Shown piece by piece: positions 4,858 to 19,609 of a DNA stretch of 32,000 nt. The notes under the pieces are model-generated. The model saw only the letters and a list, made by a program, of their open reading frames with translations. It was not told the origin of the DNA and made no database searches. Source of the stretch: Candidatus Korarchaeum cryptofilum OPF8 (lineage in GTDB: Archaea > Korarchaeota > Korarchaeia > Korarchaeales > Korarchaeaceae); assembly GCF_000019605.1 (NCBI RefSeq), contig NC_010482.1, positions 90,001-122,000 of the forward strand, written 5' to 3'. Every line of letters starts with the position of its first letter. Position 1 is the stretch's first letter. Both the position numbers and the translations under genes were made by a program.

Positions 4858-5457
4858 ATGGCGGAGTATAGGTTGAGGACTCCCGTAACTGAGGAGCAGG
4901 TTAGGAAGCTGAAAGTAGGTGATGTCGTATATCTGGATGGGATAATAATAACTGGAAGGGACCAGGTACACAGAAGGGCCTTGGAACTCGCTTCTAAGGG
5001 TGAGAAGGATAAAGTACCGGTTAAGCTGGAGGGAATGGCTTTGTATCACTGCGGACCCATAGTCGGTAAAGTTGATGGGGAGTGGAAGATATACGGCTTC
5101 GGCCCGACTACGAGCGCTAGGATGGAGAGCGTTGAGGCCGATTTCATAAGGGAATTCGGGGTCAGGCTCATAATAGGGAAGGGTGGCTTATTCGAGAGGA
5201 CTACTCAAGCGATGAAGGAGTACGGGGCAGCTTACCTCGCATATCCAGGTGGAGTTTCCGTCCTCGCGACGAATGCTGTGAAAAGGGTAGTGGATGTCCA
5301 CTGGCTCGATTTGGGAGTTCCAGAGGCTATGTGGGTCGTCGAAGTTGAGAACTTCGGCCCGACTATGGTGGCTATAGATTCTCATGGGAACAACTTATTC
5401 CTGGACGTCCTGCAAAACGTCAAGAAGAAGGCTGAGGAGATAAAGGCCAAAATATGA
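4858..5457 (+). CDS. Fe-S type hydro-lyase beta subunit (class I fumarate hydratase or tartrate dehydratase family)
   Basis: 199 aa with ITGRDQVHRR, GPTTSARME and IGKGG motifs typical of the C-terminal/beta domain of class I fumarases. GGGGGTGA lies just before the ATG. Operonic with the alpha subunit. Confidence 0.88.
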   Translation: MAEYRLRTPVTEEQVRKLKVGDVVYLDGIIITGRDQVHRRALELASKGEKDKVPVKLEGMALYHCGPIVGKVDGEWKIYGFGPTTSARMESVEADFIREFGVRLIIGKGGLFERTTQAMKEYGAAYLAYPGGVSVLATNAVKRVVDVHWLDLGVPEAMWVVEVENFGPTMVAIDSHGNNLFLDVLQNVKKKAEEIKAKI

Positions 5458-5619
5458 TCAGACCTTCACATCAACTCTCTCATAGCTCGTCAAAATCTCG
5501 GCTACAGCTAGGAGAGCAGCCACTTCCTCAGGATTTTTTACGTTGAGTTCCCTCAATACCCGCAAATAACTCGCATATTTTTTCTTGAAGGTCTTCTCCT
5601 CCCTGGGCCCTATCGACAT
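5458..5619 (-). CDS. Small hypothetical protein of 53 aa, below the ORF-track size cutoff
   Basis: The minus-strand ORF is MSIGPREEKTFKKKYASYLRVLRELNVKNPEEVAALLAVAEILTSYERVDVKV. A TATA-like ctttttatat (complement of 5641-5650) sits about 26 nt upstream of the ATG at 5619, the spacing expected for a leaderless archaeal mRNA. No homology recognised. Confidence 0.35.
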   Translation of the reverse strand: MSIGPREEKTFKKKYASYLRVLRELNVKNPEEVAALLAVAEILTSYERVDVKV

Positions 5620-5654
5620 CTCCAACACCTTTTCCTCAGCATATAAAAAGGCAG

Positions 5655-5715
5655 GTAAAAACTAATAAAATTTCCCCCGCTGCGATCGCTCAGTCCCTTC
5701 GGAGGATCTCAGCGG
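5655..5715 (-). terminator. Imperfect hairpin plus T-rich tract downstream of the FAD-protein gene
   Basis: CCGCTG (5677-5682) pairs with CAGCGG (5710-5715). Inner pairings are GATC/GATC and CTC/GAG, about 13 bp in total. On the minus strand the hairpin is followed by gggaaATTTTATTAGTTTTT. It lies about 150 nt after the stop codon, so the assignment is tentative. Confidence 0.3.
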
Positions 5716-5864
5716 CCTTTATTCCCCTCCAAGTATGTAATGTGGAGTTCTATATCAATCCTCACAGCATAATTGAGCATCAGGAAAATCAATCCATTTA
5801 CATGGCGAAAGAGACCCTAACTTCACGAAAATTCTCAAAATTGAGGCAGTGGAAGATCCACCGC

Positions 5865-7259
5865 TCAACCGTGGGAGAGCCTCCTAGCTATATCCCTCCC
5901 TATCCATACTCCTGAAGCTGCAGCTTGAACGAGACCCCTCGACACTCCTGCACCATCGCCTCCAGCATAGAGGCCCTCTATAACCTTGGTCTCGAGATTG
6001 GGCTTCAGGTCTATCTTAGCCCCGTATAACTTAACCTCGATCCCGTAGAGGAGGGTGTGATCCGAGTATATTCCGGGCATTATCTCATTCATCGCGCGCA
6101 GCATCTCCAGTATGTCCTTCAGATATCTGAAGGGGAGCACGAAGCTCAAATCTCCCGGTGTGGAGCCCGGAAGGGTAGGCTTCACTATGCTCCTACTCAA
6201 CCTAGCTTCCGTAGATCTTCTCCCTCTCTTCAAATCCCCGAGCCTCTGCACTATCGGTTGATTCCCCGCGATTTCATTCGCCATCTTAGCTATACTCAAA
6301 GCGTAAGAGATCGTATCCCTGTAAGGCGCTGTGAACTCGGTTGTCACTAGGATGGCAAAATTCGTATTTTCCGTCTTGAAATCATTCCTAGAGACACCGT
6401 TGACAGTCACTATCCCCCAGTAAGATTCAGTGACCACCTCCCCTCTAGGGTTAACGCAGAACACCCTGACTTTATCGTCGAAAGTATCGCTGTAATAGAT
6501 GAGTTTCGGCTCGTAGAGGACGTCAGTGTACTCACGCATGACTTCGTAAGGGACTTCAACCCTCACCCCCAGATCAACCTTACCACCGTCCACCTTGACC
6601 CCCAGCCTCCTCATCTCACTGACTAACCATCCCTCCATGACCCTTCCAGTGGCTAGGACGACATATTTAGCCATAATTTCCTCTCCATTCGAGAGAGATA
6701 CCCCTGATACTCTCCCATTCTCCGTTAAAATCCTGCTAGCGGTTGCTCCAAACCTGATCTCTATTCCCATCTCATCCACCAACTTCCTGAGGTTCATCAG
6801 GACCCTGTAACCTCCATCGCTCCCCATGTGCCTTATCCTGAACGGCACTAGGAGGAGGCCCGCTTTCAGGGCCTTCCTCCTCAACCTCTCCACTTCCTCC
6901 TGATCCTCACCATAGACTTCCTTAGGAGCGCCGAGCTTAAGGAAGGAATCATCTACGTAATCTAATAGGTCCCAGAACTCCCTCTCACCTATCAAGTTCG
7001 CTAGATCACCGCCAACATCCTTAGTGAGGTTGAGCTTTCCGTCGCTGAAGGTACCTGCTCCCCCGAAACCTGAGACTATATCGCAGATCTGACAGGTAAC
7101 GCATCTACCGATGGACTTCAGGGGGCACCTTCTCCCCTCCAAATCCTTCCCCATCTCGATCACAAGAACTTTGGCCTCTGGAACTATCTTCTTTATCTCA
7201 ATCGCTGAGAAGAGCCCGGATGGGCCAGCTCCCACAACGACGACATCCCAGCTCTCCAA
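5865..7259 (-). CDS. FAD-dependent oxidoreductase of unknown specificity (COG2509-like uncharacterised FAD-dependent dehydrogenase)
   Basis: N-terminal VVVVGAGPSGLFSA dinucleotide-binding motif and a C-terminal GLYAGGDGAGVSRGLVQAAASG motif. 464 aa. Confidence 0.8.
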   Translation of the reverse strand: MESWDVVVVGAGPSGLFSAIEIKKIVPEAKVLVIEMGKDLEGRRCPLKSIGRCVTCQICDIVSGFGGAGTFSDGKLNLTKDVGGDLANLIGEREFWDLLDYVDDSFLKLGAPKEVYGEDQEEVERLRRKALKAGLLLVPFRIRHMGSDGGYRVLMNLRKLVDEMGIEIRFGATASRILTENGRVSGVSLSNGEEIMAKYVVLATGRVMEGWLVSEMRRLGVKVDGGKVDLGVRVEVPYEVMREYTDVLYEPKLIYYSDTFDDKVRVFCVNPRGEVVTESYWGIVTVNGVSRNDFKTENTNFAILVTTEFTAPYRDTISYALSIAKMANEIAGNQPIVQRLGDLKRGRRSTEARLSRSIVKPTLPGSTPGDLSFVLPFRYLKDILEMLRAMNEIMPGIYSDHTLLYGIEVKLYGAKIDLKPNLETKVIEGLYAGGDGAGVSRGLVQAAASGVWIGRDIARRLSHG

Positions 7260-8043: not shown

Positions 8044-8418
8044 TTGGATGATGAGGTCAAGCGGATTAAAATACATTCGATGCTCTCCTCTCTCCCATGG
8101 AGGAGCGCGATAAAGGCCCTTAAGTACGCTCTGAGGGATAAGGTTGAGAGACATTCGTTTTCCCCGAGCGGCAGATACTTTTACGTCGTGAGGGGGGAGT
8201 TGAGCGATCATATTGTCCTCGATGATGTGTTCTGCTCCTGCATGGATCACTACTTAAATGTCGTAATCAGGGGGAAGAGGAGAGCTTGCCATCATATCGC
8301 CTCCGTGGTGATAGCTAGAGAATTCGGGAAAATAAGGGAGATAGAGCATAAGGATCAGGAATTCCTCGGGATATTGAGGAAAATAATGTTATCTGAGGGT
8401 ATGGTCATTGATGTGTGA
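8044..8418 (+). CDS. SWIM zinc-finger protein
   Basis: CSCMDHYLNVVIRGKRRACHHI fits the SWIM CxC-x(n)-CxH signature. The TTG start at 8044 lies only 2 nt from the divergent phosphoesterase start. An alternative ATG at 8080 would place the promoter inside the neighbouring gene. Confidence 0.7.
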   Translation: MDDEVKRIKIHSMLSSLPWRSAIKALKYALRDKVERHSFSPSGRYFYVVRGELSDHIVLDDVFCSCMDHYLNVVIRGKRRACHHIASVVIAREFGKIREIEHKDQEFLGILRKIMLSEGMVIDV

Positions 8419-8421
8419 TCG

Positions 8422-9234
8422 TTGAATACCGAAGACTTTATAACTGGGAGCGATATGAAGGCTCAAGTGGTATCGATGGATGCAGGCGATGATATCGACA
8501 GGGAACTTCTATCGAATTACCACAGGAGGATATTGAAGGAAGTAGTAGCGAAGAAGGTGGCTGGGGATATACTCTTCAGCGACAATATAGGACAGGCGAT
8601 GAGGAAGTGGAGGGAGTACTTCGGAGTTAAACAGAGCGAGCTAGCTAGAGCTCTTGGGGTATCAGCTTCAGTCGTCTCCGATTATGAATCGAGCAGGAGG
8701 AAGAGTCCAGGCTCCTCCGTGCTCAAGAGGTTCGTGATGGCCCTTATAGAGGAGGATGAGAAGAGGGGAGGAGCGATACTCAGATCCCTAGTGAGGACGA
8801 CGGGTCTAGTCCCCCTATTATCTAGCGTCATAGATATGAACGAGTACACATTGCCAGTCGAACTGGAGAGGTTCCTCGAGGCGATAGATGGAAGGATAAT
8901 AGTGGAAGCTCCTCAACCGACTTATGTGCATGGTTATACGGTAATAGACAGCCTCAAGGCGATCCTCAATTTAAGTGGATCGGATTTCATGAGGCTCTTC
9001 GGGACTTCCACCGAGAGGGCTCTGATATTCACGAGAGTATCCGCTGGAAGGAGCCCCTTAGTGGCCCTGAAGGTCGTCGATGTGAGGCCGAGCTTAGTGG
9101 TGCTCCACGGCCCTCAGCCGGATAGCGTGGATGAGTTAGGTATAAAGCTAGCTTCCGTGATGAGGGTTCCTCTAGCTGTCACCACTATAAAGGATGTCAA
9201 TGAGATCGTCGGGAGGCTGAGGAGCCTATCTTAA
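8422..9234 (+). CDS. XRE-type helix-turn-helix transcriptional regulator with a C-terminal domain (archaeal COG1395-like)
   Basis: MRKWREYFGVKQSELARALGVSASVVSDYESSRR is a classic XRE HTH. It starts 3 nt after the SWIM gene stop, which suggests an operon. Start is TTG 8422 or ATG 8455. Confidence 0.8.
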   Translation: MNTEDFITGSDMKAQVVSMDAGDDIDRELLSNYHRRILKEVVAKKVAGDILFSDNIGQAMRKWREYFGVKQSELARALGVSASVVSDYESSRRKSPGSSVLKRFVMALIEEDEKRGGAILRSLVRTTGLVPLLSSVIDMNEYTLPVELERFLEAIDGRIIVEAPQPTYVHGYTVIDSLKAILNLSGSDFMRLFGTSTERALIFTRVSAGRSPLVALKVVDVRPSLVVLHGPQPDSVDELGIKLASVMRVPLAVTTIKDVNEIVGRLRSLS

Positions 9235-9506
9235 TGCTATGCCGAGTCTCGGCAGTACGCTGCATTAGGGAGAATATGGAAAAACATTTAAGAGAAGCTT
9301 GGAGAAATTAGTGTTTTTAACGCAGTTTAATTATCTCTATTCTTCTCATATTAGGTTATTTGTGAGAGCCTAGCTCTCGCTTTCACATTCCTTCTCCTAA
9401 GCACCCTGAGGCATAGTTGGACCTATCAGGAGCATCATTCACTCTTAAGAGCGATTAAAAAAAGGAAATTGGTTGATCACCTCTCACTACATTGTTTAAA
9501 TAAAAA

Positions 9507-10376
9507 CTAGGAAGCGCTTATTATCGCGAATTGATGATAGAAGCGGGAGTATAGAATGATCACATAGGGATGACCGAAGCTTCTGGAGGACTTGTCGGGG
9601 TAGGGAAGTGCATAATAAGCGTAACCCACTGAGACCGATAGCTTCTTCCCCCTTATGTAAGAAGCCCCTCCACCAGGATAATTAGGATAACCGTAGAGCC
9701 GCCATTTCGTATTACCCTTATAAAAGTCGGCTTGGCTCCATAACTCAGCCTCAAATCTCGTAATAAGATTCCCAGTATTATCCCTGACTTTCAGTTGTAC
9801 TACTTTCCCGTTCTTGGAGACGTAGTCTGTTAATATAGCCTGTATGAAGTACTTCACATGTATCCTGTAATAATTTGGATATGTTTGCATGGTGTAATTC
9901 CCTATCCAGTTATAGTGCTTATAATCTGAAAATGTCTGTATACCACTGGCACAATTAAGACAATTTCCACTCATATCCCAAACTGAGAAATATGTACCTT
10001 TGAACTGGCTATCTGCTACCTTACCGAATATGAGCTTATCATTCAGATAGACGTAAAAGCTACTCCCATTAATGTCATAGTAGCGGTCAACATCGATGGG
10101 CTCATCCGTCACATTGATTCCTCTTTTGATGAACCTCCCCTGCTCATCCGTAACGTAACCCCTTCCTGGGACGTATACGTTAGGCTCTGGTATCAACTCT
10201 GGCGTCGGCGCGTTCTTTATCTCTTCCCATAATTCCTTTAATTCAGTAATGTTTATCCCCTCATCCACCTCTTTGCCCTCCGGTAGCTCTCGAGTCATAT
10301 TATCCGGTTGAGTCGCTCCATATAGAATGGGTAATAGAAGCACTATGAGTAGGGAAACTAATAGAAGGTCTCTCAT
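9507..10376 (-). CDS. Secreted protein, unassigned family 'A', copy 1
   Basis: Signal peptide MRDLLLVSLLIVLLLPILYGA followed by many N-x-S/T sequons. Family blocks APTPELIPEP, SQFKGTYF, CLNC, IHVKYFIQA, FEAELWS, GGASYIRGK and YSRFYHQFAI are shared with 11912-12787 and 14162-15040. Confidence 0.85.
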   Translation of the reverse strand: MRDLLLVSLLIVLLLPILYGATQPDNMTRELPEGKEVDEGINITELKELWEEIKNAPTPELIPEPNVYVPGRGYVTDEQGRFIKRGINVTDEPIDVDRYYDINGSSFYVYLNDKLIFGKVADSQFKGTYFSVWDMSGNCLNCASGIQTFSDYKHYNWIGNYTMQTYPNYYRIHVKYFIQAILTDYVSKNGKVVQLKVRDNTGNLITRFEAELWSQADFYKGNTKWRLYGYPNYPGGGASYIRGKKLSVSVGYAYYALPYPDKSSRSFGHPYVIILYSRFYHQFAIISAS

Positions 10377-10480
10377 AATCCGAATAGAGAAGGAAAAATA
10401 ATATAGGGATTTTCATGCGATAGCTATATATATACGACGAATGACGAGAAATTTATATTTATGATTTACTGCATCATATA
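10377..10480. promoter_or_regulatory. Bidirectional promoter of cassette 1
   Basis: The 104-bp AT-rich spacer has TATA-like aaaaataatata (10395-10406, about 20-30 nt from the minus-strand ATG at 10376) and aaatttatattta (10449-10461, about 20-30 nt from the ATG at 10481). A central block gattttcatgcgatagc(TA)5cgacgaatgacgag is conserved in cassette 3. Confidence 0.55.
10425..10434. repeat. (TA)5 dinucleotide repeat in the cassette 1 promoter
   Basis: tatatatata sits between the two TATA-like boxes. The orthologous position in cassette 3 carries (TA)7. Confidence 0.9.
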
Positions 10481-11773
10481 ATGATGAATAGGAAGATAAT
10501 AGTCATTACTGTAATCCTCATAGTTATCATATCCGCAGTAATCTCGATGGAAATAACTCAGATTGGCCATTCTAATACGCATGTTCATACCAGTAGCTCT
10601 AACATCAGTAGTTCGGTGACTGAACCTCGCAGCAATATTTCAACGACGGAGTCATTCTCGACTGAAAGAGATGCTATCTTCATAGGAGATGGAGCCCCCG
10701 CCTACGCGCTCCTGAAGATGAAGGATAAGATTTACGCATTAGGGGGAGGAGTCGCCGTCATTTTCTCGGAGGATTTGAGTCCCTTGTGCTATGCGAAGCT
10801 CAAATATAATATATGGAAAGCTGAGAAGTACGATGAGGACCGCTTTGTATCAATGCAGCAGTGGTATTCTCTACCCGGGAGCATAGCGATGTTCGATTCG
10901 GAGCTCAACTTGATATGGTCTGTTGATGGGAACTTCACGGATTTCAGAGTAGCAAATAATAAAATTTATGCAATAGAATCTAGGAGCGGTTTCTTAGAAT
11001 CTAGGAACGGCTCCTATTACCTAGATATATTCGATGGAAACGGTAATTTGATCAGATCATTTAAAGCATTAGATGTTAAGGAGATCGCGGGACGCACGGT
11101 AATACAGTATCTCCTATCTATAGAAGTCAAGGATGGTAAAATATATGTACCATATGTGTCAGGAGAGGCAGAAGGGCCCTACAAACTGACGCTCCTGAGA
11201 TTCGATGAACAAGGTAATTTGGAACTCAAGAAGGTCATATATGAGGCGAAGGAAAACATGGATCGCACTTACATATACAGCTATAAGGATGGGCTCCTCT
11301 TAGCGATCGAAGGCCCTATATGCCGCTATATCTACACAGATAGAGAGGGGAATATAGTGGGGAAGGCTGGGTGGAAGCCCCCACTAGAAGCGGGTTTCAG
11401 GAATTGTTGGGGTCAGGCGAAGGTATTGAATGATAGAGTTTACGTATTCGGTCACGATGAATGTTTATTCGCTGGATTCGTTGGCTTGGTAGATGAATCA
11501 TCACTCTACGTAAATGAGTACAATGAATCGATGTATTACACGAGGGTACAGGAGATAGTCCTTCAGAAGGGTGGTACTTGGCAGGATAACTCCGTCGTAT
11601 ATGATATCCTCTCGGATGGCGATGAGCTCTACGTGATAGGGATTGTTCAGATGAGCCTACCATCTGGTGCTTTCATAGTCAGAGTGGATCCTGATCTTAA
11701 AGTAAATATCAACAATCTCCTAGAACAGGCTGATGTGGTTTACTTGGAGGACATACCCCCATGTAAATCTTAG
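10481..11773 (+). CDS. N-terminally membrane-anchored beta-propeller-like surface protein, family 'B', copy 1
   Basis: One N-terminal TM helix (IIVITVILIVIISAVISMEI) is followed by a 37-aa Ser/Thr-rich stalk. Recurring strand motifs (KDKIYALGG, NNKIYAIES, DGKIYVPYVSG, NDRVYVFGHD, GDELYVIGIV, with D..GN.i turns) resemble PQQ/BamB-type propeller blades. It ends in ADVVYLEDIPPCKS. Confidence 0.85.
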   Translation: MMNRKIIVITVILIVIISAVISMEITQIGHSNTHVHTSSSNISSSVTEPRSNISTTESFSTERDAIFIGDGAPAYALLKMKDKIYALGGGVAVIFSEDLSPLCYAKLKYNIWKAEKYDEDRFVSMQQWYSLPGSIAMFDSELNLIWSVDGNFTDFRVANNKIYAIESRSGFLESRNGSYYLDIFDGNGNLIRSFKALDVKEIAGRTVIQYLLSIEVKDGKIYVPYVSGEAEGPYKLTLLRFDEQGNLELKKVIYEAKENMDRTYIYSYKDGLLLAIEGPICRYIYTDREGNIVGKAGWKPPLEAGFRNCWGQAKVLNDRVYVFGHDECLFAGFVGLVDESSLYVNEYNESMYYTRVQEIVLQKGGTWQDNSVVYDILSDGDELYVIGIVQMSLPSGAFIVRVDPDLKVNINNLLEQADVVYLEDIPPCKS

Positions 11774-11807
11774 TTGAGAACCTAAGACCAGCCGTAACCA
11801 ATTTTTT
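11768..11807 (+). terminator. Hairpin overlapping the stop codon, followed by a T6 tract, after B copy 1
   Basis: TCTTAG (11768-11773, includes the TAG stop) pairs with CTAAGA (11782-11787), and TTTTTT follows at 11802-11807. The same hairpin recurs after B copy 3 (16348-16367). Confidence 0.4.
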
Positions 11808-11911
11808 AAGATCATCATATCTACTGCTAAACATACCTCGAGTGAGCTGCTCCTCGACCGAAGCTCATACAGTTTCAAGAGCGATTGGAGGATCATAGAA
11901 AGGGGAGTAGT

Positions 11912-12787
11912 TCATTCTCTCACTATCGCGAATTGATGGTAGAATCGGGAGTGTAGAGTGATGACATAAGGACGACCGAAGCTCCTGCTCGCTAGGGAAG
12001 GATATTGTGCATAGTAAGAGAGCCCCACTGAGACCTTTACCGTCTTCCCCCTTATGTAGGAAGCCCCTCCATCAGGATAATCAGAATAGCCATAGAGCTG
12101 CCAACCTCTACCCTTACGGAAATTGGCCTCGCTAAATAGCTCAGCCTCGAATAGTGAGATGACCTTTCCCCCGCGGGGGTGCCCGCCCGATCTCAGCAGG
12201 ATACGTACTTTACTCTCATTCCAAGAAACACAAGAAATATAGCCCTGCAGCTCGGCCTGTATGAAATACTTTACATGTATTTTTCGAAAATCTGGATAAT
12301 TTTCTTCAGTATAATTCCCTATCCAGTTGTAATCTTTATAGCTTGAGAACGTTTGAGGGCCATCTTTACAATTTAAACAATGTCCAGTTTCATTAAAGAC
12401 TAGGAAATAGGTACCTTTGAACTGGCTATCGGTCACTCTCTCCAATATGAGCTTCTCATTCCTGTAAACGTAGAGAGTATTTCCGAGTTTGTCGGAGTAA
12501 ATATCCATCTCGTTTATCCTCAGCAGTGTGATGAAATTCAAGTAGGAGTCTGTGACAAATCCCTTCCCTGGAACGTATACGTTGGGCTCTGGTATCAACT
12601 CTGGCGTCGGCGCGTTCTTTATCTCCTCCCATAATTCCTTTAATTCTGTTATATTTGTTTCCTCATCTTCACTCTTCTTCCACTCTATGAATTCCGGGCC
12701 GAACCATTGACTCGAATTATCCGGCTGAGCTATTCCATATACGATAGGGATTATCATCAATGTGAGCAGAGTAGCTAGCGCCCTCAT
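11912..12787 (-). CDS. Secreted protein, unassigned family 'A', copy 2
   Basis: Signal peptide MRALATLLTLMIIPIVYGIA and the same conserved blocks as copies 1 and 3 (ITELKELWEEIKNAPTPELIPEPNVYVPG, identical to copy 1; CLNC; YSRFYHQFAI). Confidence 0.85.
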   Translation of the reverse strand: MRALATLLTLMIIPIVYGIAQPDNSSQWFGPEFIEWKKSEDEETNITELKELWEEIKNAPTPELIPEPNVYVPGKGFVTDSYLNFITLLRINEMDIYSDKLGNTLYVYRNEKLILERVTDSQFKGTYFLVFNETGHCLNCKDGPQTFSSYKDYNWIGNYTEENYPDFRKIHVKYFIQAELQGYISCVSWNESKVRILLRSGGHPRGGKVISLFEAELFSEANFRKGRGWQLYGYSDYPDGGASYIRGKTVKVSVGLSYYAQYPSLASRSFGRPYVITLHSRFYHQFAIVRE

Positions 12788-12875
12788 ACACCGAATTATC
12801 GCTGTGACGAAATATTAAGATTTCCATGGGCGAACATTGAAAAGTATATAAATCTGTTTTAAGTTAATTCGGGCG
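12788..12875. promoter_or_regulatory. Bidirectional promoter of cassette 2 (sequence unrelated to cassettes 1 and 3)
   Basis: The 88-bp spacer has TATA-like aatattaaga (12811-12820, serving the minus-strand gene) and aaagtatataaat (12841-12853, about 25 nt before the ATG at 12876). Confidence 0.5.
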
Positions 12876-14072
12876 ATGAGCATCAGGCTGGCCGTATTAA
12901 TAATCCTTGTCGTGGCAGTAATTTTAGCAATTTCAGTCATGAGAGTACCTCAAGCTGAGCATGGCGGTAGCTCTCACACCAGTAGTTCATCGAAAGAACT
13001 CTCCGTCGGAAGAGATGCTATCTTCATAGGAGATGGAGCCCCGGCCTACGCGCTCCTGAGGATGAAGGATAAGATTTACGCATTAGGGGGAGGAGTCGCC
13101 GTCATTTTCTCGGAGGATTTGAGTCCCTTATGCTATGCGAAGCTCAAATATAATATATGGAAAGCTGAGAATTATGATGAGGACCGCTTTGTATCAATGC
13201 AGCAGTGGTATCCGCCAACGCGGGTCGGGAGCATAGCGATGTTCGATTCGGAGCTCAACTTGATATGGTCCGTTGATGGGAACTTCACGGATTTCAGAGT
13301 AGCAAATAATAAAATTTATGCAGCAGAGCTTAAAGGGGATTACTATTATCTCGATATATTCGATGGAAACGGTAATCTGATTAGATCATTCAGGGTCTTG
13401 GATGCTAATGAAGTCACCGAGTGGATACGAGATTCATTAACTATAGAAGTTAATGATAAAATATATGTACCATACGTTTCGGGAGATAGCAAGCCCTACA
13501 AACTGATGCTCCTGAGCTTTGACGAACAAGGCAACTTGGAGCTCGAGAAGGAAATTTATGAGACCGAGGAAGACGTAGGTCGCACCTACATATACAGCTA
13601 TAGGGACAGTTTCCTTCTGACGATCGAAGGTCCCGCGTGCCGCTACATCTACGTAGATAGGAATGGGAGCATATTGAGGGAGAGTATTTGGGAGCCATTA
13701 TTCGAAACTGGGTTCAGGAATTGCTGGACTAGGGCGAAGGTAGTGAATGATAGAGTTTACGTATTCGGTCACGATGAATGCATATTCGCTGGATTAATAG
13801 GAATAATCGAGACACCCACTCCGGACTCCCCGAGCTTCAAGTACATACAGGAGATATTCGTCAAAAGGGATAGTACTTGGCAGGATAACTCCATCATATA
13901 CGATATCCTCCCGGATGGAGATGAGCTCTACGTTATAGGGCTGGTCCAGATGAATCTACCCTCGGGAGCTTTCATAGTCAGAGTGGATCCGGATATTGAC
14001 ACGGAAATTAGCCCACTCCTGGAGCGAGCTGATGTGGTTTACTTGGAGGACATGCCTCCCTGCAAATCTTAG
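12876..14072 (+). CDS. N-terminally membrane-anchored beta-propeller-like surface protein, family 'B', copy 2
   Basis: TM helix LAVLIILVVAVILAISV, a short Ser-rich stalk, the same blade motifs, and a C-terminus of ADVVYLEDMPPCKS. Confidence 0.85.
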   Translation: MSIRLAVLIILVVAVILAISVMRVPQAEHGGSSHTSSSSKELSVGRDAIFIGDGAPAYALLRMKDKIYALGGGVAVIFSEDLSPLCYAKLKYNIWKAENYDEDRFVSMQQWYPPTRVGSIAMFDSELNLIWSVDGNFTDFRVANNKIYAAELKGDYYYLDIFDGNGNLIRSFRVLDANEVTEWIRDSLTIEVNDKIYVPYVSGDSKPYKLMLLSFDEQGNLELEKEIYETEEDVGRTYIYSYRDSFLLTIEGPACRYIYVDRNGSILRESIWEPLFETGFRNCWTRAKVVNDRVYVFGHDECIFAGLIGIIETPTPDSPSFKYIQEIFVKRDSTWQDNSIIYDILPDGDELYVIGLVQMNLPSGAFIVRVDPDIDTEISPLLERADVVYLEDMPPCKS

Positions 14073-14161
14073 TCTAGGATCTCGGGCCGACTACCAAATT
14101 CATTTTCAAGAATGAAAAAAATAATTTTTATCGACCTTACACTACTTTGTTTAAAAAAACA

Positions 14162-15040
14162 CTAGGAGGCGCTCATTATCGCGAATTGATGATAGAAGCG
14201 GGAGTATAGTTTGATTATGTGCGGGTGTCCGAAAGGCGGTCTCATCGATAGGTAAGGGTAGGGAGTGTAATAGGAGAGCCCCACAGAGACGGATAGCCTC
14301 TTCCCCTTTATGTACTCGGCACCTCCCAATGGAAGATGAGGATAGCCATAGAGCTGCCAACCCACCCAGTTACATTTGACTTTATCGTTTTTCTCCTTGC
14401 AGTAGTTGGCCTCGCTCCATAACTCAGCCTCGAATCTCGTAATGATCTCCGTGCCATCCCTGACTCTCAGTTGTACTTTATTATTCGGGTTTCCGTTCTT
14501 ATAGACAGAACCTGTTAGTATGGCCTGTATGAAGTACTTTATATGTATCTTAACATATTTATCTCTATAAGCCGGATTATTATCAACTTGTGACTTTATT
14601 GATTGATAATCCTTATAAAATCCATATGTTTGATCGCCTTCACGACAATTTAGGCAAGTGTTATCCCTATCGAAGATTGAGAAGTAAGTACCTTTGAACC
14701 AACTATCTGCTACATTAGCGAATACTAACTTATCGCCAACATAGACGTAAAAACTACTCCCGTTAGTATCGAAATAATAATCCCTCTCATTAGTCCCCAG
14801 AGGCGTGATTATTTTTCCCTCCTTTACAATGTAAGGTTCAGGTATCAACTCTGGCGTCGGCGCATCCTTTATCTTCTCCCATATCTCCTTTAGTTCAGCT
14901 GTACTTATTTCCTCATTTATCCTCTTTCGATCCACGTCTCCTGGACTCGGCCCTTGAGTCATATTATCCGGTTGAGCCGCTCCATGCATGATGGGTAATA
15001 AAAGCACTATGAGTAGGGAAACTAATAGAAGGTCTCTCAT
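14162..15040 (-). CDS. Secreted protein, unassigned family 'A', copy 3
   Basis: The signal peptide MRDLLLVSLLIVLLLPIMHGA is nearly identical to copy 1. Conserved blocks include APTPELIPEP, WFKGTYF, CLNC, IHIKYFIQA, FEAELWS and YSRFYHQFAI. Confidence 0.85.
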   Translation of the reverse strand: MRDLLLVSLLIVLLLPIMHGAAQPDNMTQGPSPGDVDRKRINEEISTAELKEIWEKIKDAPTPELIPEPYIVKEGKIITPLGTNERDYYFDTNGSSFYVYVGDKLVFANVADSWFKGTYFSIFDRDNTCLNCREGDQTYGFYKDYQSIKSQVDNNPAYRDKYVKIHIKYFIQAILTGSVYKNGNPNNKVQLRVRDGTEIITRFEAELWSEANYCKEKNDKVKCNWVGWQLYGYPHLPLGGAEYIKGKRLSVSVGLSYYTPYPYLSMRPPFGHPHIIKLYSRFYHQFAIMSAS

Positions 15041-15147
15041 AACGAAGCCAGAGAGTTAAAAATAATATAGAGATTTTCATGCAATAGCTATATATATATA
15101 TACGACGAATGACGAGAAATTTATATTATGATTTACTGCATTATTGG
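15041..15147. promoter_or_regulatory. Bidirectional promoter of cassette 3 (near-copy of the cassette 1 promoter)
   Basis: aaaaataatatagagattttcatgcaatagc(TA)7cgacgaatgacgagaaatttatatt matches 10394-10460 apart from a few substitutions and the TA-repeat length. Confidence 0.55.
15089..15102. repeat. (TA)7 dinucleotide repeat in the cassette 3 promoter
   Basis: tatatatatatata, compared with (TA)5 at the equivalent site of cassette 1. Confidence 0.9.
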
Positions 15148-16353
15148 ATGATGAACAGGAAGGCATTCCTGGTTATAGCAGTTCTACTGGTCCTCATCAC
15201 AGTCCTCATAGCCCTAATCACGATTAAAAGATCCCCTGAACAATCCGGTGGAAGGGATGCTATCTTCATAGATCGAAAGGATCTGAAGAAGAGCCTCGAT
15301 GTACCACAATATGCTATCCTGAAGATTAAGGATAAGATTTATGCGTTAGGCGGTTATGATGAGGGAGTTGCTGTAATTCTCTCCGAGGATCTGAGGCCGA
15401 TATGCCATGCGAAACTCAAGCATGAGTTATGGAGAGCTGAGAAGTACGATGAGGATAGATTTGTAGCAATGTCAATTTGGTACTGGTATTCAGAGACGCT
15501 CGCAGCGGCCGGAAGCAATATAACGATGTTCGATTATAAGTTCAATCAGATATGGTCCGTTAACGGGAACTTCACGGATTTCAGAGTAGCAAATAATAAA
15601 ATTTATGTAATAGAGCACAGAGGGAATTCTAGTTATCTCGATATATTCGATGGAAACGGTAATTTAATCAAATCATTTAAAGTATTAGACGAAAGAGAGG
15701 TAGAGGAAGAATTAAAAAATTATGTATCTATAGAAGCGAAGAATAGTAAAATATACGTAGCCTATATATCGGGAGGGGATAGTGAGCCCCATAAACTGAT
15801 GCTCCTAAGGTTCGATGAACAAGGCAACTTGGAGCTCAAGAAAGCCGTTTATGGAGAATCAGGAACTCTTGGGAGTATACGTAACTATAGAGATGGGCTT
15901 CTCCTACCTCTTTCAACTTCCTCCTGCCGCTTCATATACGTAGATAGGGATGGTAACTTTTTGGGGGAGGCTCGATGGAAGCCCCCGTTCGGGGAGGGAT
16001 GCGCAGCTGATGCGAAGGTGTTCAATGGTAGAGCGTATATATTAGGCTATGATCCCAATTTATTCGCTGGTTACGTGGGCTTAATAAATGAATCGATATA
16101 TGTGAATGGATCATTCTACTACACGAAAGTGCAGGAGATATTCGTCAAAAGGGATAGTACCTGGCAGAGCAACTCTGTCGTGAGGGATGTCCTCCTTAAT
16201 GATGAGCTCTACGTTATAGGGCTGGTCCAGATGCATCCGCCATCCGGCGCTTTCATAGCTAGAGTGGACCCTTACCTAAATGAGGATATCAGCTATCTCC
16301 TCGAGCGAGCTGATGTGGTTTACTTGGAGGACATACCTCCCTGCAAATCTTAG
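15148..16353 (+). CDS. N-terminally membrane-anchored beta-propeller-like surface protein, family 'B', copy 3
   Basis: I place the start at ATGATG 15148 (MMNRKAFLVIAVLLVLI...), by analogy with copy 1 (MMNRKIIVITV...) and the conserved upstream promoter. The track ORF starts at 15109, inside that promoter. It has almost no stalk (SPEQSGG) and ends in ADVVYLEDIPPCKS. Confidence 0.85.
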   Translation: MMNRKAFLVIAVLLVLITVLIALITIKRSPEQSGGRDAIFIDRKDLKKSLDVPQYAILKIKDKIYALGGYDEGVAVILSEDLRPICHAKLKHELWRAEKYDEDRFVAMSIWYWYSETLAAAGSNITMFDYKFNQIWSVNGNFTDFRVANNKIYVIEHRGNSSYLDIFDGNGNLIKSFKVLDEREVEEELKNYVSIEAKNSKIYVAYISGGDSEPHKLMLLRFDEQGNLELKKAVYGESGTLGSIRNYRDGLLLPLSTSSCRFIYVDRDGNFLGEARWKPPFGEGCAADAKVFNGRAYILGYDPNLFAGYVGLINESIYVNGSFYYTKVQEIFVKRDSTWQSNSVVRDVLLNDELYVIGLVQMHPPSGAFIARVDPYLNEDISYLLERADVVYLEDIPPCKS

Positions 16354-16592: not shown

Positions 16593-18752
16593 ATGAGAGC
16601 TGTAACCCTCGCCCTCATATCCCTCCTCCTCTTAAGCCTCCTCCCCGCCTCAGCCGAGGAGGAGAAAGTCATCGGGAAAATAGATATAGAGTACGCGAAG
16701 TACATCGAGAATAAGTTAACGAGCATCGGATCATACAAAGAGCCTAAATTCTTGGGTTTTAGAGTGGCAGGGACTCCTGAGGACCTAGAAACAGCTAATT
16801 TCATCGCTGAGGAGATGAGGAAGATGGGTTTAGTCAACGTCTCCTTGGAACCCGTCCCATTAGATGCTTGGGAATTCAAGGGGGCTAGATTGGAGCTCAG
16901 CAACGGCAAGGTGATCATAGCCTCCTCCTTCGGGGGCGTCCCGGGGACTGGGAGTGAGGGGATAAGCGGCGAGATCGTGTACGTGGGAGATGGTACTAGA
17001 GGCAATTACGAAGGTTTGAATGTCAGTGGGAAGCTCGTCCTCGCGTACTGGAATCCTGATATCAGCTGGTTCAATATGATAGCTCATGAAGCGATGATCC
17101 ACGGGGCCAAAGGCGTGATCCTCTTCAATCCGCCTAATGGAAGTTACGCTCAGCACCCCAATGCTTTACATTCTTTCGATGGTCTCTACAGCTCGGATTT
17201 CATTCCGATGATAGTCATAAGTAAGGAAGACGCTCAGGAAATAATTGAGATGCTGAAATCAGGTCCTGTAGAGGCTAAGATGGTGAACCTCGCTACTTTG
17301 AAGCGTGGTACTGGATGGAACACTATAGGCTACATCCCCGGGAGGAGGGCTGATGAGTACATACTGATAGCGGCGCATCACGATGCTTGGTTCTATGGAG
17401 CTATGGATGATACTGGTGCTGTGGCTGCGCTTCTAACTTTAGCTAAAGCCATAAAGGAGAGCGGTTACGTCCCGGAGAGGACTTTAGTATTCATGACACA
17501 CACAGCTGAGGAGTACGGGATTGTAGATGCTTATCACGATTGGCTCATAGGTGCTTGGTGGCGTATAACTCAAGCTCATCCCGAGTGGAGGAAAAAGGCA
17601 ATAGCATACATAAATCTCGAGGGGATGGCAATTAAAGGCGTTCCCTTAGGTGTAGATGCCTCCCCAGAGCTCTCCACATTTATCTCGGAGATCCTCGATG
17701 AGAGCAAAGAGCTCCTGCCTTACGGAAGGGGGGAATTGGAAGATGTTTATTGCTGGACCGAAGCATGGCCTTACGCAGCTGCAGGCGTTCCCAGCATAAA
17801 CTTGGATACATTCTCCCCCTGGTTCCGTCAGAACCTATATCATACTCAGTTCGATTCCCCCGAGATAATTGATTGGGATTACTTAGGGAAGATAGTCTCC
17901 CTGACAGCTAAGATCCTCATAAGGCTGGATAAGTCCGAGCTTCTACCCTATGACTTCAGCGCGAGGGCTGCTCACTTGAGGGAGAATTTGAATGAGACTA
18001 GGATGAAGCAACTCGGAGCTGAGCCTGAAGAACTCATGAAGGGAGTTGAGGAACTTGAGAAAGCATTCTCTGAGTTCAAGAACTTGAGTAAGAATGCATC
18101 ATCGGATGTAATAGTGAAAGTGAATTCAAAGCTGAGGGAAGCTGCTTATATCATGCTATCGGAACTTACAGCTCTCGATCCCTGGGATAACACGATATAC
18201 CCGCATCAGCAAGTTGAGTCCGATGCGCTCTTCCTGAGCTCCGCTTTAGATGCTTTGAAGGGAGGCGATGTCAATGAAGCCCTATCGATGATAGAATCCG
18301 TGAGCATAAACTGGTACGATTCGTTCTACAGTTACGAAGTATTCAAGAGGGAGCTCCTGCACAAATCCCCGAATTATGAGAGGATAACTTGGGGAGGCCT
18401 GGGCCATTTAGCGCCACCAATAGACCTCTGGAAGGAGTATAACTCCCTAAGGGAGAAGTCCATGGCCAATATCACGAACTACGATGCTGAAATTAGATCT
18501 ATCGAGAACCACCTGAAGGAGACGAAGGCCCTCTATCAGGAGAGGCTGAGAGATATAGCTAAAGCACTGAGTTCAGCTAGCTCCCTCATAAGGGAGGCGA
18601 ACTCAATCCTCAAATCGACCACGACTCAGAAGACAGAGGTCAGGGAGGAGACCGTAACACCGCAGGAGGCTATCTCACTAATACCAGCTGTACTGATCTC
18701 GATCTTAGTGATCGTAATATTGCTCGTGATCTACTTGAGGAGGCGTAAATAA
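16593..18752 (+). CDS. M28-family metallopeptidase with an inserted PA domain and a C-terminal helical domain (glutamate carboxypeptidase II / transferrin-receptor-like architecture), membrane-anchored at the C-terminus
   Basis: Signal peptide MRAVTLALISLLLLSLLPASA. Zinc-ligand-like motifs AAHHDAW, MDDTGAVAA, AEEYG and YHTQFD. A PA-like insert (KLVLAYWN...GAKGVILFN). A long helical C-terminal region followed by the TM helix LIPAVLISILVIVILLVIYL-RRRK. Confidence 0.8.
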   Translation: MRAVTLALISLLLLSLLPASAEEEKVIGKIDIEYAKYIENKLTSIGSYKEPKFLGFRVAGTPEDLETANFIAEEMRKMGLVNVSLEPVPLDAWEFKGARLELSNGKVIIASSFGGVPGTGSEGISGEIVYVGDGTRGNYEGLNVSGKLVLAYWNPDISWFNMIAHEAMIHGAKGVILFNPPNGSYAQHPNALHSFDGLYSSDFIPMIVISKEDAQEIIEMLKSGPVEAKMVNLATLKRGTGWNTIGYIPGRRADEYILIAAHHDAWFYGAMDDTGAVAALLTLAKAIKESGYVPERTLVFMTHTAEEYGIVDAYHDWLIGAWWRITQAHPEWRKKAIAYINLEGMAIKGVPLGVDASPELSTFISEILDESKELLPYGRGELEDVYCWTEAWPYAAAGVPSINLDTFSPWFRQNLYHTQFDSPEIIDWDYLGKIVSLTAKILIRLDKSELLPYDFSARAAHLRENLNETRMKQLGAEPEELMKGVEELEKAFSEFKNLSKNASSDVIVKVNSKLREAAYIMLSELTALDPWDNTIYPHQQVESDALFLSSALDALKGGDVNEALSMIESVSINWYDSFYSYEVFKRELLHKSPNYERITWGGLGHLAPPIDLWKEYNSLREKSMANITNYDAEIRSIENHLKETKALYQERLRDIAKALSSASSLIREANSILKSTTTQKTEVREETVTPQEAISLIPAVLISILVIVILLVIYLRRRK

Positions 18753-18760
18753 CCTCTTTT

Positions 18761-19609
18761 TTATCTCCTCCAACTCACTATAATTGCGCTCGATATTATT
18801 AGAGCCGACCCTAAGAATCCAAGTAAACCGGGCTGCTCCCCGAGAAAGATACCCAGAATTAACGCAGATATCGGCTCTAAGTTCGATATTATGCTAGCTG
18901 GACCAGCTTCGATCCTCTTGAGCCCCATCGCATGCAAGTAATAAGCTAAGAAGGATGGGAAGATACCCAAATAAACAATTGAGATCATAGAATCGAGATT
19001 GAGGCTTCCTCTGGAGAGAGATAAGAGGGGGAGGAGCTCTAAAGCTGCCCAGACCTGCGGGCCCAGGCCGAGCTCTATCTCATCGTATCCGGAAACGGCA
19101 AGTTTCCGGACACCCAAGATTATGCCCGAGTAGGATAAGCTGCTCCCCAATCCCAGGGCTATCGCAACTAAGTCCAGATTTCCTCCTCCCCTCAATCCCA
19201 CGGCAACTATTCCAGAGAAGGATAAGATGAGGGCTATGAGCTTCCTCGTGTTCAAGCTCTCATTCAGCAAGAATTTCGCGAGTATTATCACTATGACGGG
19301 GGCTGTGTAGAGGAGCACGGCGGCTATCCCCATGCCAGAGTGCATGACGCTGAAGACATATATCAGATAGAGGGGGCCCGTGAAGAAGATGCCTATGAGG
19401 GCCAACTTAAAATCGAGCACCCTCCTCCTCAGGAAAATCAGGGAGAGTACAGCGCTGACTCCAGCCCTCATCCCTCCTATCCAGAAGGCATCCGAGCCTG
19501 CATTCAAGGCGCGCTTAGTCGCTAAACCTATAGTGCTCCAGAGGAATGCCGCTAATAGAAGTGGTATTACGCCGCTCTTGGAACTCACATCTCTCACCTG
19601 GCAATTCAA
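18761..19609 (-). CDS. EamA/DMT-superfamily transporter
   Basis: 282 aa with about 10 predicted hydrophobic helices arranged as two similar halves, typical of EamA-repeat permeases. Confidence 0.8.
   Translation of the reverse strand: MNCQVRDVSSKSGVIPLLLAAFLWSTIGLATKRALNAGSDAFWIGGMRAGVSAVLSLIFLRRRVLDFKLALIGIFFTGPLYLIYVFSVMHSGMGIAAVLLYTAPVIVIILAKFLLNESLNTRKLIALILSFSGIVAVGLRGGGNLDLVAIALGLGSSLSYSGIILGVRKLAVSGYDEIELGLGPQVWAALELLPLLSLSRGSLNLDSMISIVYLGIFPSFLAYYLHAMGLKRIEAGPASIISNLEPISALILGIFLGEQPGLLGFLGSALIISSAIIVSWRR

Follow-up and report, generated by a model that had tools for sequence, protein, structure and literature searches.

In the surface layers of the Sulfolobales, a secreted protein (SlaA) is held by a membrane-anchored partner (SlaB) that is encoded next to it. 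Among bacteria, the pilE/pilS genes of Neisseria and vlsE of Borrelia are varied by segmental gene conversion, and the hifA/hifB genes of Haemophilus influenzae share a divergent promoter that contains a (TA)n tract. Here we describe a gene module of Candidatus Korarchaeum cryptofilum OPF8 that, by analogy, resembles SlaB/SlaA in its logic and the bacterial variation loci in its dynamics, and that is a member of neither. The Korarchaeota are deep-branching archaea that are not in pure culture, and their cell surface is, to our knowledge, almost entirely uncharacterised. The module lies in a stretch of 32,000 nucleotides (contig NC_010482.1, positions 90,001 to 122,000 of the forward strand), hereafter the window, to which all coordinates refer unless a locus is named. 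It comprises three tandem copies of a divergent gene pair, one gene for an exported protein (family A) and one for a membrane-tethered protein (family B). Our preferred reading, which we hold tentatively and place a little short of an even chance, is that B docks A, that a polar face of A is its working site, and that segments exchanged between copies are exposed and modulate specificity or recognition.

The A genes, all on the minus strand, stand head-to-head with paralogous family B genes on the plus strand, so that the region 9507–16353 resolves into three tandem cassette copies. The first contains A1 (9507–10376; 289 amino acids, aa) and B1 (10481–11773; 430 aa), the second A2 (11912–12787; 291 aa) and B2 (12876–14072; 398 aa; the copy used for the structure model), and the third A3 (14162–15040; 292 aa, including an inserted loop, CKEKNDKVKC, that adds a Cys pair) and B3 (15148–16353; 401 aa counted from MMNRK). 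A1 consists of a signal peptide, a disordered N-terminal linker, a helix with a Pro-rich APTPELIPEP segment, and a conserved core; B1 has an N-terminal transmembrane helix, a Ser/Thr-rich linker, a predicted β-propeller and a conserved C-terminal tail. The B paralogs of the window (398–430 aa) are 61–69% identical to B1. The open reading frame (ORF) of B3 has a 13-codon upstream extension (MTRNLYYDLLHYW; 15109–15147) with an ATG at 15109; the start at 15148 is the likelier one because the extension overlaps conserved promoter sequence. Two database entries for A1 (P0007 and P0008; 263 aa) apparently start 26 codons late and thereby lose the signal peptide, a reading that follows from their length and their 91% query coverage. 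Set beside SlaA/SlaB, A/B would share the same logic, in that the gene for an exported glycoprotein without an anchor lies next to that for a membrane-anchored partner. There is, however, no similarity of sequence or fold, and A is only ~30 kDa. Moreover, SlaB is a coiled-coil stalk with a C-terminal anchor, whereas B would be a propeller with an N-terminal one; and the A/B genes are divergent and occur in one to three diversified copies, whereas those for SlaA/SlaB are co-directional.

The association of A with B extends well beyond the window. We fetched the contigs that carry A/B relatives (numbered as loci, L001 onwards) and scanned all of them with hidden Markov models of both families. 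Wherever upstream sequence is available, a Korarchaeal-type A gene has a divergent B gene beside it, the two start codons being 88–132 bp apart in 17/17 complete pairs; this pairing is kept even in relatives with as little as 45% (A) and 27% (B) identity to the window copies. Duplication involves the pair as a whole, and further tandem arrays occur at L005, L017, L023, L025 and L027. All window copies, and those copies at other loci that are not cut by contig ends, are full-length and have the conserved promoter spacer. The neighbourhoods of the cassettes are unrelated to each other: L001 lies within a pyrimidine operon, L015 by succinyl-CoA ligase and L40e, and L004 by EamA and Opp genes. At L014 (3607–4630), an intact A homolog (P0037) has as its neighbour a B homolog that is broken into two ORFs (149 and 163 aa), both of which match the B profile; this may be a frameshift or a pseudogene, and if so, A may persist there without a full-length B.

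An AlphaFold2 model of B2 (predicted local distance difference test score, pLDDT, 81.5; predicted template modelling score, pTM, 0.80) has an N-terminal transmembrane helix (residues 3–21) that leaves next to nothing in the cytoplasm, and continues with a disordered Ser-rich linker (20–43) and ~29 strands. B is thus predicted to be a membrane-tethered extracellular β-propeller of ~7 blades. When this model was compared with the PDB by Foldseek, 701 matches had E<0.001, all of them β-propellers, and the best 50 of the 701 had a probability of 1.0; they include CylK (7fh7; E 8e-10, TMq 0.59), Fbw7, tetrathionate hydrolase, BtuG (8okv) and semaphorins, with TMq at 0.5–0.6. No Pfam propeller repeat (WD40, Kelch, PQQ, NHL, YVTN) matched B above threshold: a weak Kelch_1 match has E 0.25 in one window copy and, at best, E 0.0052 in 1/17 members. 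Neither did B have any sequence match in the PDB. Thus B shares the β-propeller that Foldseek recognizes in Bacteroides BtuG (8okv/8bmz) and in the C-terminal domain of CylK (7fh7), but it differs from these proteins in belonging to no propeller sequence family, in having four invariant cysteines (C86, C255, C283 and C396 in B2 numbering) and in its own C-terminal tail; furthermore, its anchor is an N-terminal transmembrane helix, rather than a lipid anchor. The tail (..VVYLEDIPPCKS, YLEDIPPCKS) ends all Korarchaeum-type B proteins (11738–11773, 14037–14072 and 16318–16353 in the window), perhaps serving to lock the propeller or as a contact site for a partner.

Bearing these observations in mind, we propose that the anchorless A would be kept at the cell surface by B, as its membrane anchor or docking platform. 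The working site of A, either ligand-binding or catalytic, would be formed by a strand face with H173, K175, F177 and Q179, a second face with E211, W213 and E215, and R265, S277, H281 and Q282. The divergent segments would be exposed loops and the tip of a hairpin, and segmental gene conversion would reshuffle them between cassettes, with the invariant blocks serving as homology arms.

Several points weigh against this proposal. The basis for an A–B complex is genomic (17/17 pairs adjacent and divergent), and the contact itself is something that we infer. The alignment behind the structure model of A is only 20 sequences deep. The nearest neighbours of A and of B do not always agree: L020 and L021 have identical B genes together with very different A genes, which argues against a strict one-to-one co-adaptation of A and B, although chimeras of metagenome assembly could contribute to this discordance. 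Other points emerge from a distant clade, in which an A-like gene is followed co-directionally by a gene for a surface protein with a transmembrane segment. This neighbour is a membrane-anchored propeller at L009 (1289–2518), and at L008 (1098–3827) it is a leucine-rich repeat (LRR) protein with a transmembrane segment and a propeller that is homologous to that of L009 (E 5e-26); at L012 (6305–7822), however, it is an LRR-transmembrane protein without a propeller. Homology of B to these distant-clade propellers is unsupported (hhalign probability 0.3–1.1%). L009 also encodes other secreted proteins with the same type of signal peptide, including a reprolysin-like metalloprotease.

Turning to family A, the original prediction, made from the window sequence alone, had called these proteins orphans, and this was borne out. 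A profile search of 1.84 billion representative proteins returned 25 relatives (clusters), all of them archaeal; a word-indexed search of 5.8 billion proteins returned 20 clusters, every one named 'hypothetical', and a second profile search with a broader A profile added no further named relatives. The close relatives are Korarchaeal; the distant ones (23–35% identity) were found in metagenome bins of other archaea, one bin being labelled Methanobacteriota. Among 24 members there was no relevant Pfam match at E<=0.01 (the best values in the window, E 0.057–0.96, are far below cut-offs), nothing was found in NCBIfam, PHROG or PADLOC, and no PDB sequence matched. A full-text search of the literature found nothing on the A or B proteins. 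Of the motifs originally quoted, APTPELIPEP occurs only in the closest Korarchaeum copies and is not family-wide.

The sole part of A that is common to the distant relatives is the core domain (A1 residues 95–289, ~195 aa; 9510–10094, minus strand), which is modelled with pLDDT above 90 and mostly as β-strand. Across 24 sequences, down to 23% identity, nine residues are invariant: H173, K175, F177, E211, L212, G251, R265, S277 and Q282. Near-invariant are D97, G127, Y152, Y176, Q179, V193, W213, S214, E215, W225, G229, G237, S249, P260, F267, G268 and L275, and H281 is mostly conserved. Many of these residues fall within three short motifs. In IHVKYFIQA (residues 172–180; 9837–9863, minus strand), every second residue from position 173 to 179 is conserved (H173, K175 and F177 invariant, Q179 near-invariant), which places all four on one face of strand 171–180. 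In FEAELWSQA (residues 208–216; 9729–9755, minus strand), which holds the invariant E211 and L212 and the near-invariant W213, S214 and E215, it is E211, W213 and E215 that likewise lie on one face of strand 208–219. The C-terminal YSRFYHQFAI (residues 276–285; 9522–9551, minus strand) contributes the invariant S277 and Q282 and the mostly conserved H281. From the model, we read this conserved polar and aromatic surface as a putative working site.

A conserved CxxC had been put forward as a structural disulfide, a metal site or a redox motif; it does not define the family. The motif (CLNC, residues 139–142 of A1; 9951–9962, with counterparts at 12368–12379 in A2 and 14645–14656 in A3, all on the minus strand) is limited to the Korarchaeal clade and its nearest relatives (P0037 and P0041); it is absent from most of the more distant members (P0044, P0046, P0047, P0048, P0051, P0052, P0053, P0056 and P0057), and a close homolog, P0009, reads CLNY. 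Being restricted to one clade, it was rejected as a redox or metal site that marks the family; CLNC is more likely a local, clade-specific disulfide. A thioredoxin-like CxxC oxidoreductase was also rejected as a model for A: the likeness lies in the C-x-x-C of exported Korarchaeal members, there is no thioredoxin fold or match, and the CxxC is not family-wide.

Export of A had been predicted as well, and it is supported by an N-terminal hydrophobic helix followed by a conserved AQPDN, and by N-glycosylation sequons. In A1 the signal peptide (MRDLLLVSLLIVLLLPILYGAT; residues 1–22; 10311–10376, minus strand) is followed by the conserved QPDN. Judging from these features, A is a Sec-type exported protein without a membrane anchor, and it is probably glycosylated. 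The five AlphaFold2 models of A agree with each other (pLDDT 83.8–85.7; best model 85.7, with pTM 0.80): the signal-peptide helix (residues 2–18) and a disordered stretch (19–41) are followed by a short helix (43–53), an extended Pro-rich segment, and a core with long strands at 114–133, 171–188 and 208–219, shorter strands and one 11-residue helix. The description of A as aromatic-rich is apt (F, W and Y make up 18% of the mature part), and that of an all-β protein nearly so, the model being mostly β-strand with two short helices. Foldseek searches with this model returned no match at E<=0.001 either in the PDB (best E 0.11, TMq <=0.16) or in BFVD, the best TM-score over both being ~0.15–0.2. 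As modelled, the fold of A has no detectable known relative within the PDB and BFVD.

Two kinds of known fold deserve comment. Jelly-roll glycan enzymes and lectins (GH16, PL7/PL18, galectins) have, like A, long antiparallel strands, one face of which bears conserved residues of acidic, aromatic and basic type; they were rejected as relatives, the weak Foldseek matches of A to 5t9x, 1j1t, 4q8k and galectins being non-significant (E 0.2–1, TM 0.08–0.11, root-mean-square deviation ~17 Å; for 5t9x, 1j1t and 4q8k, E 0.3–0.7 and TM 0.08–0.09). Set against the motifs of GH16 (ExDx(x)E) and PL7 (RxELR/QIH/YFKAG), A lacks that of GH16 and has only the E211-x3-E215 pair. Donor-strand or TasA-like archaeal filament subunits (AbpA bundling pili, 'threads') were likewise rejected: none is among the best 50 PDB matches listed, and nothing reaches E<0.001.

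These data bear on an alternative in which A is a secreted enzyme, with the invariant His, Lys, Glu, Arg, Ser and Gln residues as its active site, and B a separate, co-regulated extracellular protein that captures or processes the substrate; the two would serve a common pathway outside the cell, such as the scavenging of peptides or glycans, but would not be stably bound to each other. We consider this unlikely, bearing in mind that A has neither profile nor fold similarity to any enzyme family, that H281 is not strictly invariant, and that the fast mosaic change of large exposed segments, described below, would be odd for a housekeeping scavenging enzyme. On the other hand, the nine residues that are invariant to 23% identity are for the most part polar and potentially catalytic (H173, K175, E211, R265, S277, Q282). 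Jelly-roll glycosidases carry acid pairs on their β-strands, and the E211-x3-E215 pair, on one strand face, recalls them; we take this analogy as a lead only. Such an enzyme would also be in keeping with the presence of surface propellers such as BtuG among the structural matches of B, and with neighbouring genes that include a surface M28/PA peptidase in the window and, at L004, an Opp-type peptide ATP-binding cassette (ABC) transporter.

Another key feature of A is the alternation of conserved blocks and divergent patches. The three proteins of 289, 291 and 292 aa with shared blocks, as originally predicted, were confirmed by ORFs and alignment: A2 and A3 align with A1 over their full length at 61–62% identity, and the mean column identity of the three paralogs is 72%. 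All of the blocks that had been quoted are present in all three copies (..ELKE.WE.IK.APTPELIPEP, FKGTYF, CLNC, IH[VI]KYFIQA, FEAEL[WF]S[EQ]A, LYGY, GGA[SE]YI[RK]GK and [YH]SRFYHQFAI), except that 'SVSVG' reads KVSVG in copy 2, so that VSVG alone is invariant. The divergent, indel-bearing segments also lie where they had been placed (A1 residues 23–44, 66–96, 143–171, 181–207 and 217–226). The clustering of invariant columns was assessed against 10,000 shuffles: they form 51 runs (P<1e-4), of which the longest spans 10 columns (P=0.009) and five span >=5 (P=0.008). The block-and-patch pattern thus stands as the original prediction had it; the pairing with B, the tandem cassettes and the recombinational mosaicism that we report here were not part of it.

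The divergent segments map to distinctive parts of the model. Residues 23–44 are disordered; 66–96 holds a low-confidence stretch (87–93) and a 9-residue indel; 134–138 and 143–171 form a loop plus helix after CLNC; 181–207 is the distal half and turn of a long hairpin; and 217–226 is a loop in which an indel (up to 11 residues) brings in the Cys pair of some members. Furthermore, 10/12 N-glycosylation sequons of the three paralogs are within variable segments, and conservation is 0.81 in strands versus 0.70 in non-regular regions. Because the segments coincide with low-pLDDT linkers, loops, half of a hairpin, indels and sequons, they fit, in the model, a description as exposed, tolerant regions on a rigid scaffold.

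The original term 'hypervariable' nevertheless overstates the case. We counted synonymous and non-synonymous differences per segment by the method of Nei and Gojobori, for the three window paralogs and 22 close ortholog pairs. Within blocks, the proportion of synonymous differences (pS) is 0.37–0.45 and that of non-synonymous differences (pN) 0.04–0.08, whereas elsewhere the values are 0.60–0.72 and 0.34–0.42, respectively. Since the blocks combine substantial synonymous with near-zero non-synonymous divergence, they reflect mainly purifying selection, not just recent copying. In close ortholog pairs with enough substitutions, pN/pS is mostly 0.3–0.7 in variable segments versus 0.05–0.3 in conserved ones, and over a whole variable segment it never exceeds 1; the variable segments are therefore fast and relaxed, and positive selection is not demonstrable. 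Positive selection in the patches was thus rejected, with no segment at a non-synonymous to synonymous rate ratio (dN/dS) >1; pN is greater than pS in a single 20-codon window of A1/A3, where very few differences are counted. Whole-gene dN/dS between window paralogs is 0.26–0.38 for A and 0.23–0.35 for B. At long range, A is kept far better than B (45% versus 27% identity), whereas within the genus A is slightly less conserved, being the less similar member in 71% of pairs; together, these two trends point to a strongly constrained core combined with labile segments.

A further observation, which concerns how the segments come to differ, is that tracts of near-identity interrupt otherwise diverged genes. 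B1 and B2 are 93–100% identical in nucleotide sequence over ~170 bp, against a background of ~70%, and several tracts are significant in a Sawyer-type runs test (P<=0.0006). The A allele of L020 has an L015-like backbone (nucleotide identity 96–100% over aa 1–77, and 91–100% over aa 172–289); at aa ~138–170 (~90 nucleotides) it is 98–100% identical to window A1, and aa 91–133 resemble L022. It follows that the variable patch after CLNC, flanked by conserved blocks, is transferred whole from one backbone to another. L020 and L021 are 100% identical over 3.1 kb that include B, and then diverge abruptly inside A; L005b and L022 have B genes that are 100% identical and A genes that are only 90–91% identical. 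A four-combination incompatibility test on segment types flagged 0/28 segment pairs, so that the case for mosaicism is made by the runs test and by individual alleles. Some of the metagenomic mosaics may owe something to assembly chimeras; that artefact alone accounts for them is unlikely, because the window itself is mosaic and because a double junction falls within ~100 nucleotides. Taken together, these nucleotide comparisons show that paralogs and alleles exchange segments by recombination.

It might be argued that blocks and patches of this kind are ordinary: purifying selection on core strands, relaxed loops and gene conversion between tandem paralogs, in what would then be ordinary envelope components. 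Every variable segment does have dN/dS <1, the gain in conservation of strands over loops is modest (0.81 versus 0.70), and gene-conversion tracts account for some of the identical stretches. We nevertheless regard this explanation as improbable. It does not readily accommodate an A that within the genus diverges as fast as, or faster than, B (71% of pairs), cassettes in which B is 100% identical and A only 90–91%, the combination of a constrained core and unusually labile segments in A (45% versus 27% at long range), or discrete segment types that are swapped between backbones.

The A and B genes of a cassette also share a promoter spacer of ~100 bp, with an AT-rich, TATA-like element ~20–33 nucleotides upstream of each start codon. 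The spacer of cassette 1 (10377–10480), which contains (TA)5 at 10425–10434, is ~90% identical to that of cassette 3 (15041–15147), which contains (TA)7 at 15089–15102; the spacer of cassette 2 (12788–12875) is a shorter variant without a (TA)n tract. The mid-spacer tract is (TA)4 in L015, and it is (TA)7 in L005b versus (TA)5 in L022, despite their 100% identical B genes. These differences look like slipped-strand length variation between the two promoters. We noted, moreover, that ~90% identity between cassettes 1 and 3 extends over the whole spacer and the region encoding the signal peptide of A (10307–10480 versus 14970–15147), whereas the parts encoding mature A are only ~50–75% identical (~50–70% for all of A outside the signal-peptide region). 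To judge from this comparison, the 5' ends and the regulatory region have been homogenised across otherwise divergent cassettes. The same type of A signal peptide is found in L015, L019, L020 and L024.

It is in these respects that the locus recalls the bacterial variation systems. As in pilE/pilS and vlsE, A alleles are mosaic through exchange of segments between paralogs; unlike those loci, all A/B copies are complete and have promoters, there are no silent donor cassettes, and dN/dS is <1. As in hifA/hifB, divergent promoters are separated by a (TA)n tract, whose length varies (4, 5 or 7 units in A/B); the host, however, is an archaeon with TATA/BRE promoters (BRE, transcription factor B recognition element), and the A/B tract is known here from sequence alone. 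One may go further than docking and suppose that A/B is an archaeal surface-variation system, in which propeller-displayed A proteins of a new fold have their exposed segments reshuffled between tandem and paralogous cassettes by gene conversion, and their expression tuned by (TA)n, as an analogue of bacterial contingency loci that would be driven by recognition of viruses or partner cells. This extension strikes us as distinctly unlikely.

Tandem, diversified copies with mosaic alleles also bring to mind a conflict module, in which A would be a secreted toxin (an archaeocin) and B a membrane-anchored immunity or receptor-decoy protein, the two diversifying in tandem as in bacteriocin or polymorphic-toxin loci. 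The tight linkage of a secreted protein to a membrane protein, the differing genomic neighbourhoods of the cassette between genomes, and a guanine-plus-cytosine (GC) content that is lower in the array than in its flanks (0.40–0.455 versus ~0.46–0.51) all speak for such a module. Yet neither PADLOC (no defence matches) nor PHROG or toxin-domain searches gave a match, and searches of phage, plasmid and IMG/VR viral contigs found no copies. There are no dedicated export or processing genes nearby, the overall dN/dS is 0.26–0.38 for A and 0.23–0.35 for B, and immunity proteins are typically much smaller than B (~400 aa). Moreover, A and B stay paired over deep divergence, more like a stable cellular function. 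A toxin–immunity pair is thus, in our opinion, very unlikely, and we retain docking of A by B as the preferred reading.

The genes that flank the array are ordinary: a helix-turn-helix (HTH) regulator, a metallophosphoesterase, the surface M28/PA peptidase, an EamA transporter and a TIP49 ATPase. The drop in GC content is seen over window positions 9000–16000, the higher flanking values being those of housekeeping genes. Directly downstream of the array (16593–18752) lies the 719-aa M28/PA-domain peptidase, which has a signal peptide and a C-terminal transmembrane anchor, and it is followed by the EamA transporter (18761–19609). An EamA gene (5147–5983) also adjoins the B homolog at L004, and this shared neighbour may be a remnant of an ancestral neighbourhood. 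On the other side, a 124-aa ORF (8044–8418) with a CxC...CxH pattern (FCSCMDHYLNVVIRGKRRACHH) that resembles a SWIM-type zinc finger, with no Pfam match at E<0.001, is directly upstream of the HTH_3/HTH_31 regulator gene (8422–9234).

We rate A/B as a new protein family and gene module, the novelty of the fold being judged against the PDB and BFVD; the sequences themselves are already in databases as 'hypothetical protein'. The family is rare (~25 clusters) and confined to a narrow lineage, with a confident predicted fold, and it is invariably coupled to what we predict to be a membrane-tethered propeller. Its invariant residues provide a candidate functional set. If the pattern reflects ordinary conservation of core versus loops, A is a good target for structural genomics, without wider consequence. 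If, on the other hand, the fold is new and A docks on B, the pair would represent a new kind of two-component archaeal surface module; segment swapping and the variable TA tract would count as two of the few signs that archaea vary their surfaces in a programmed or recombination-driven way, and would have a bearing on how Korarchaeota handle viruses and the partner organisms on which they depend.

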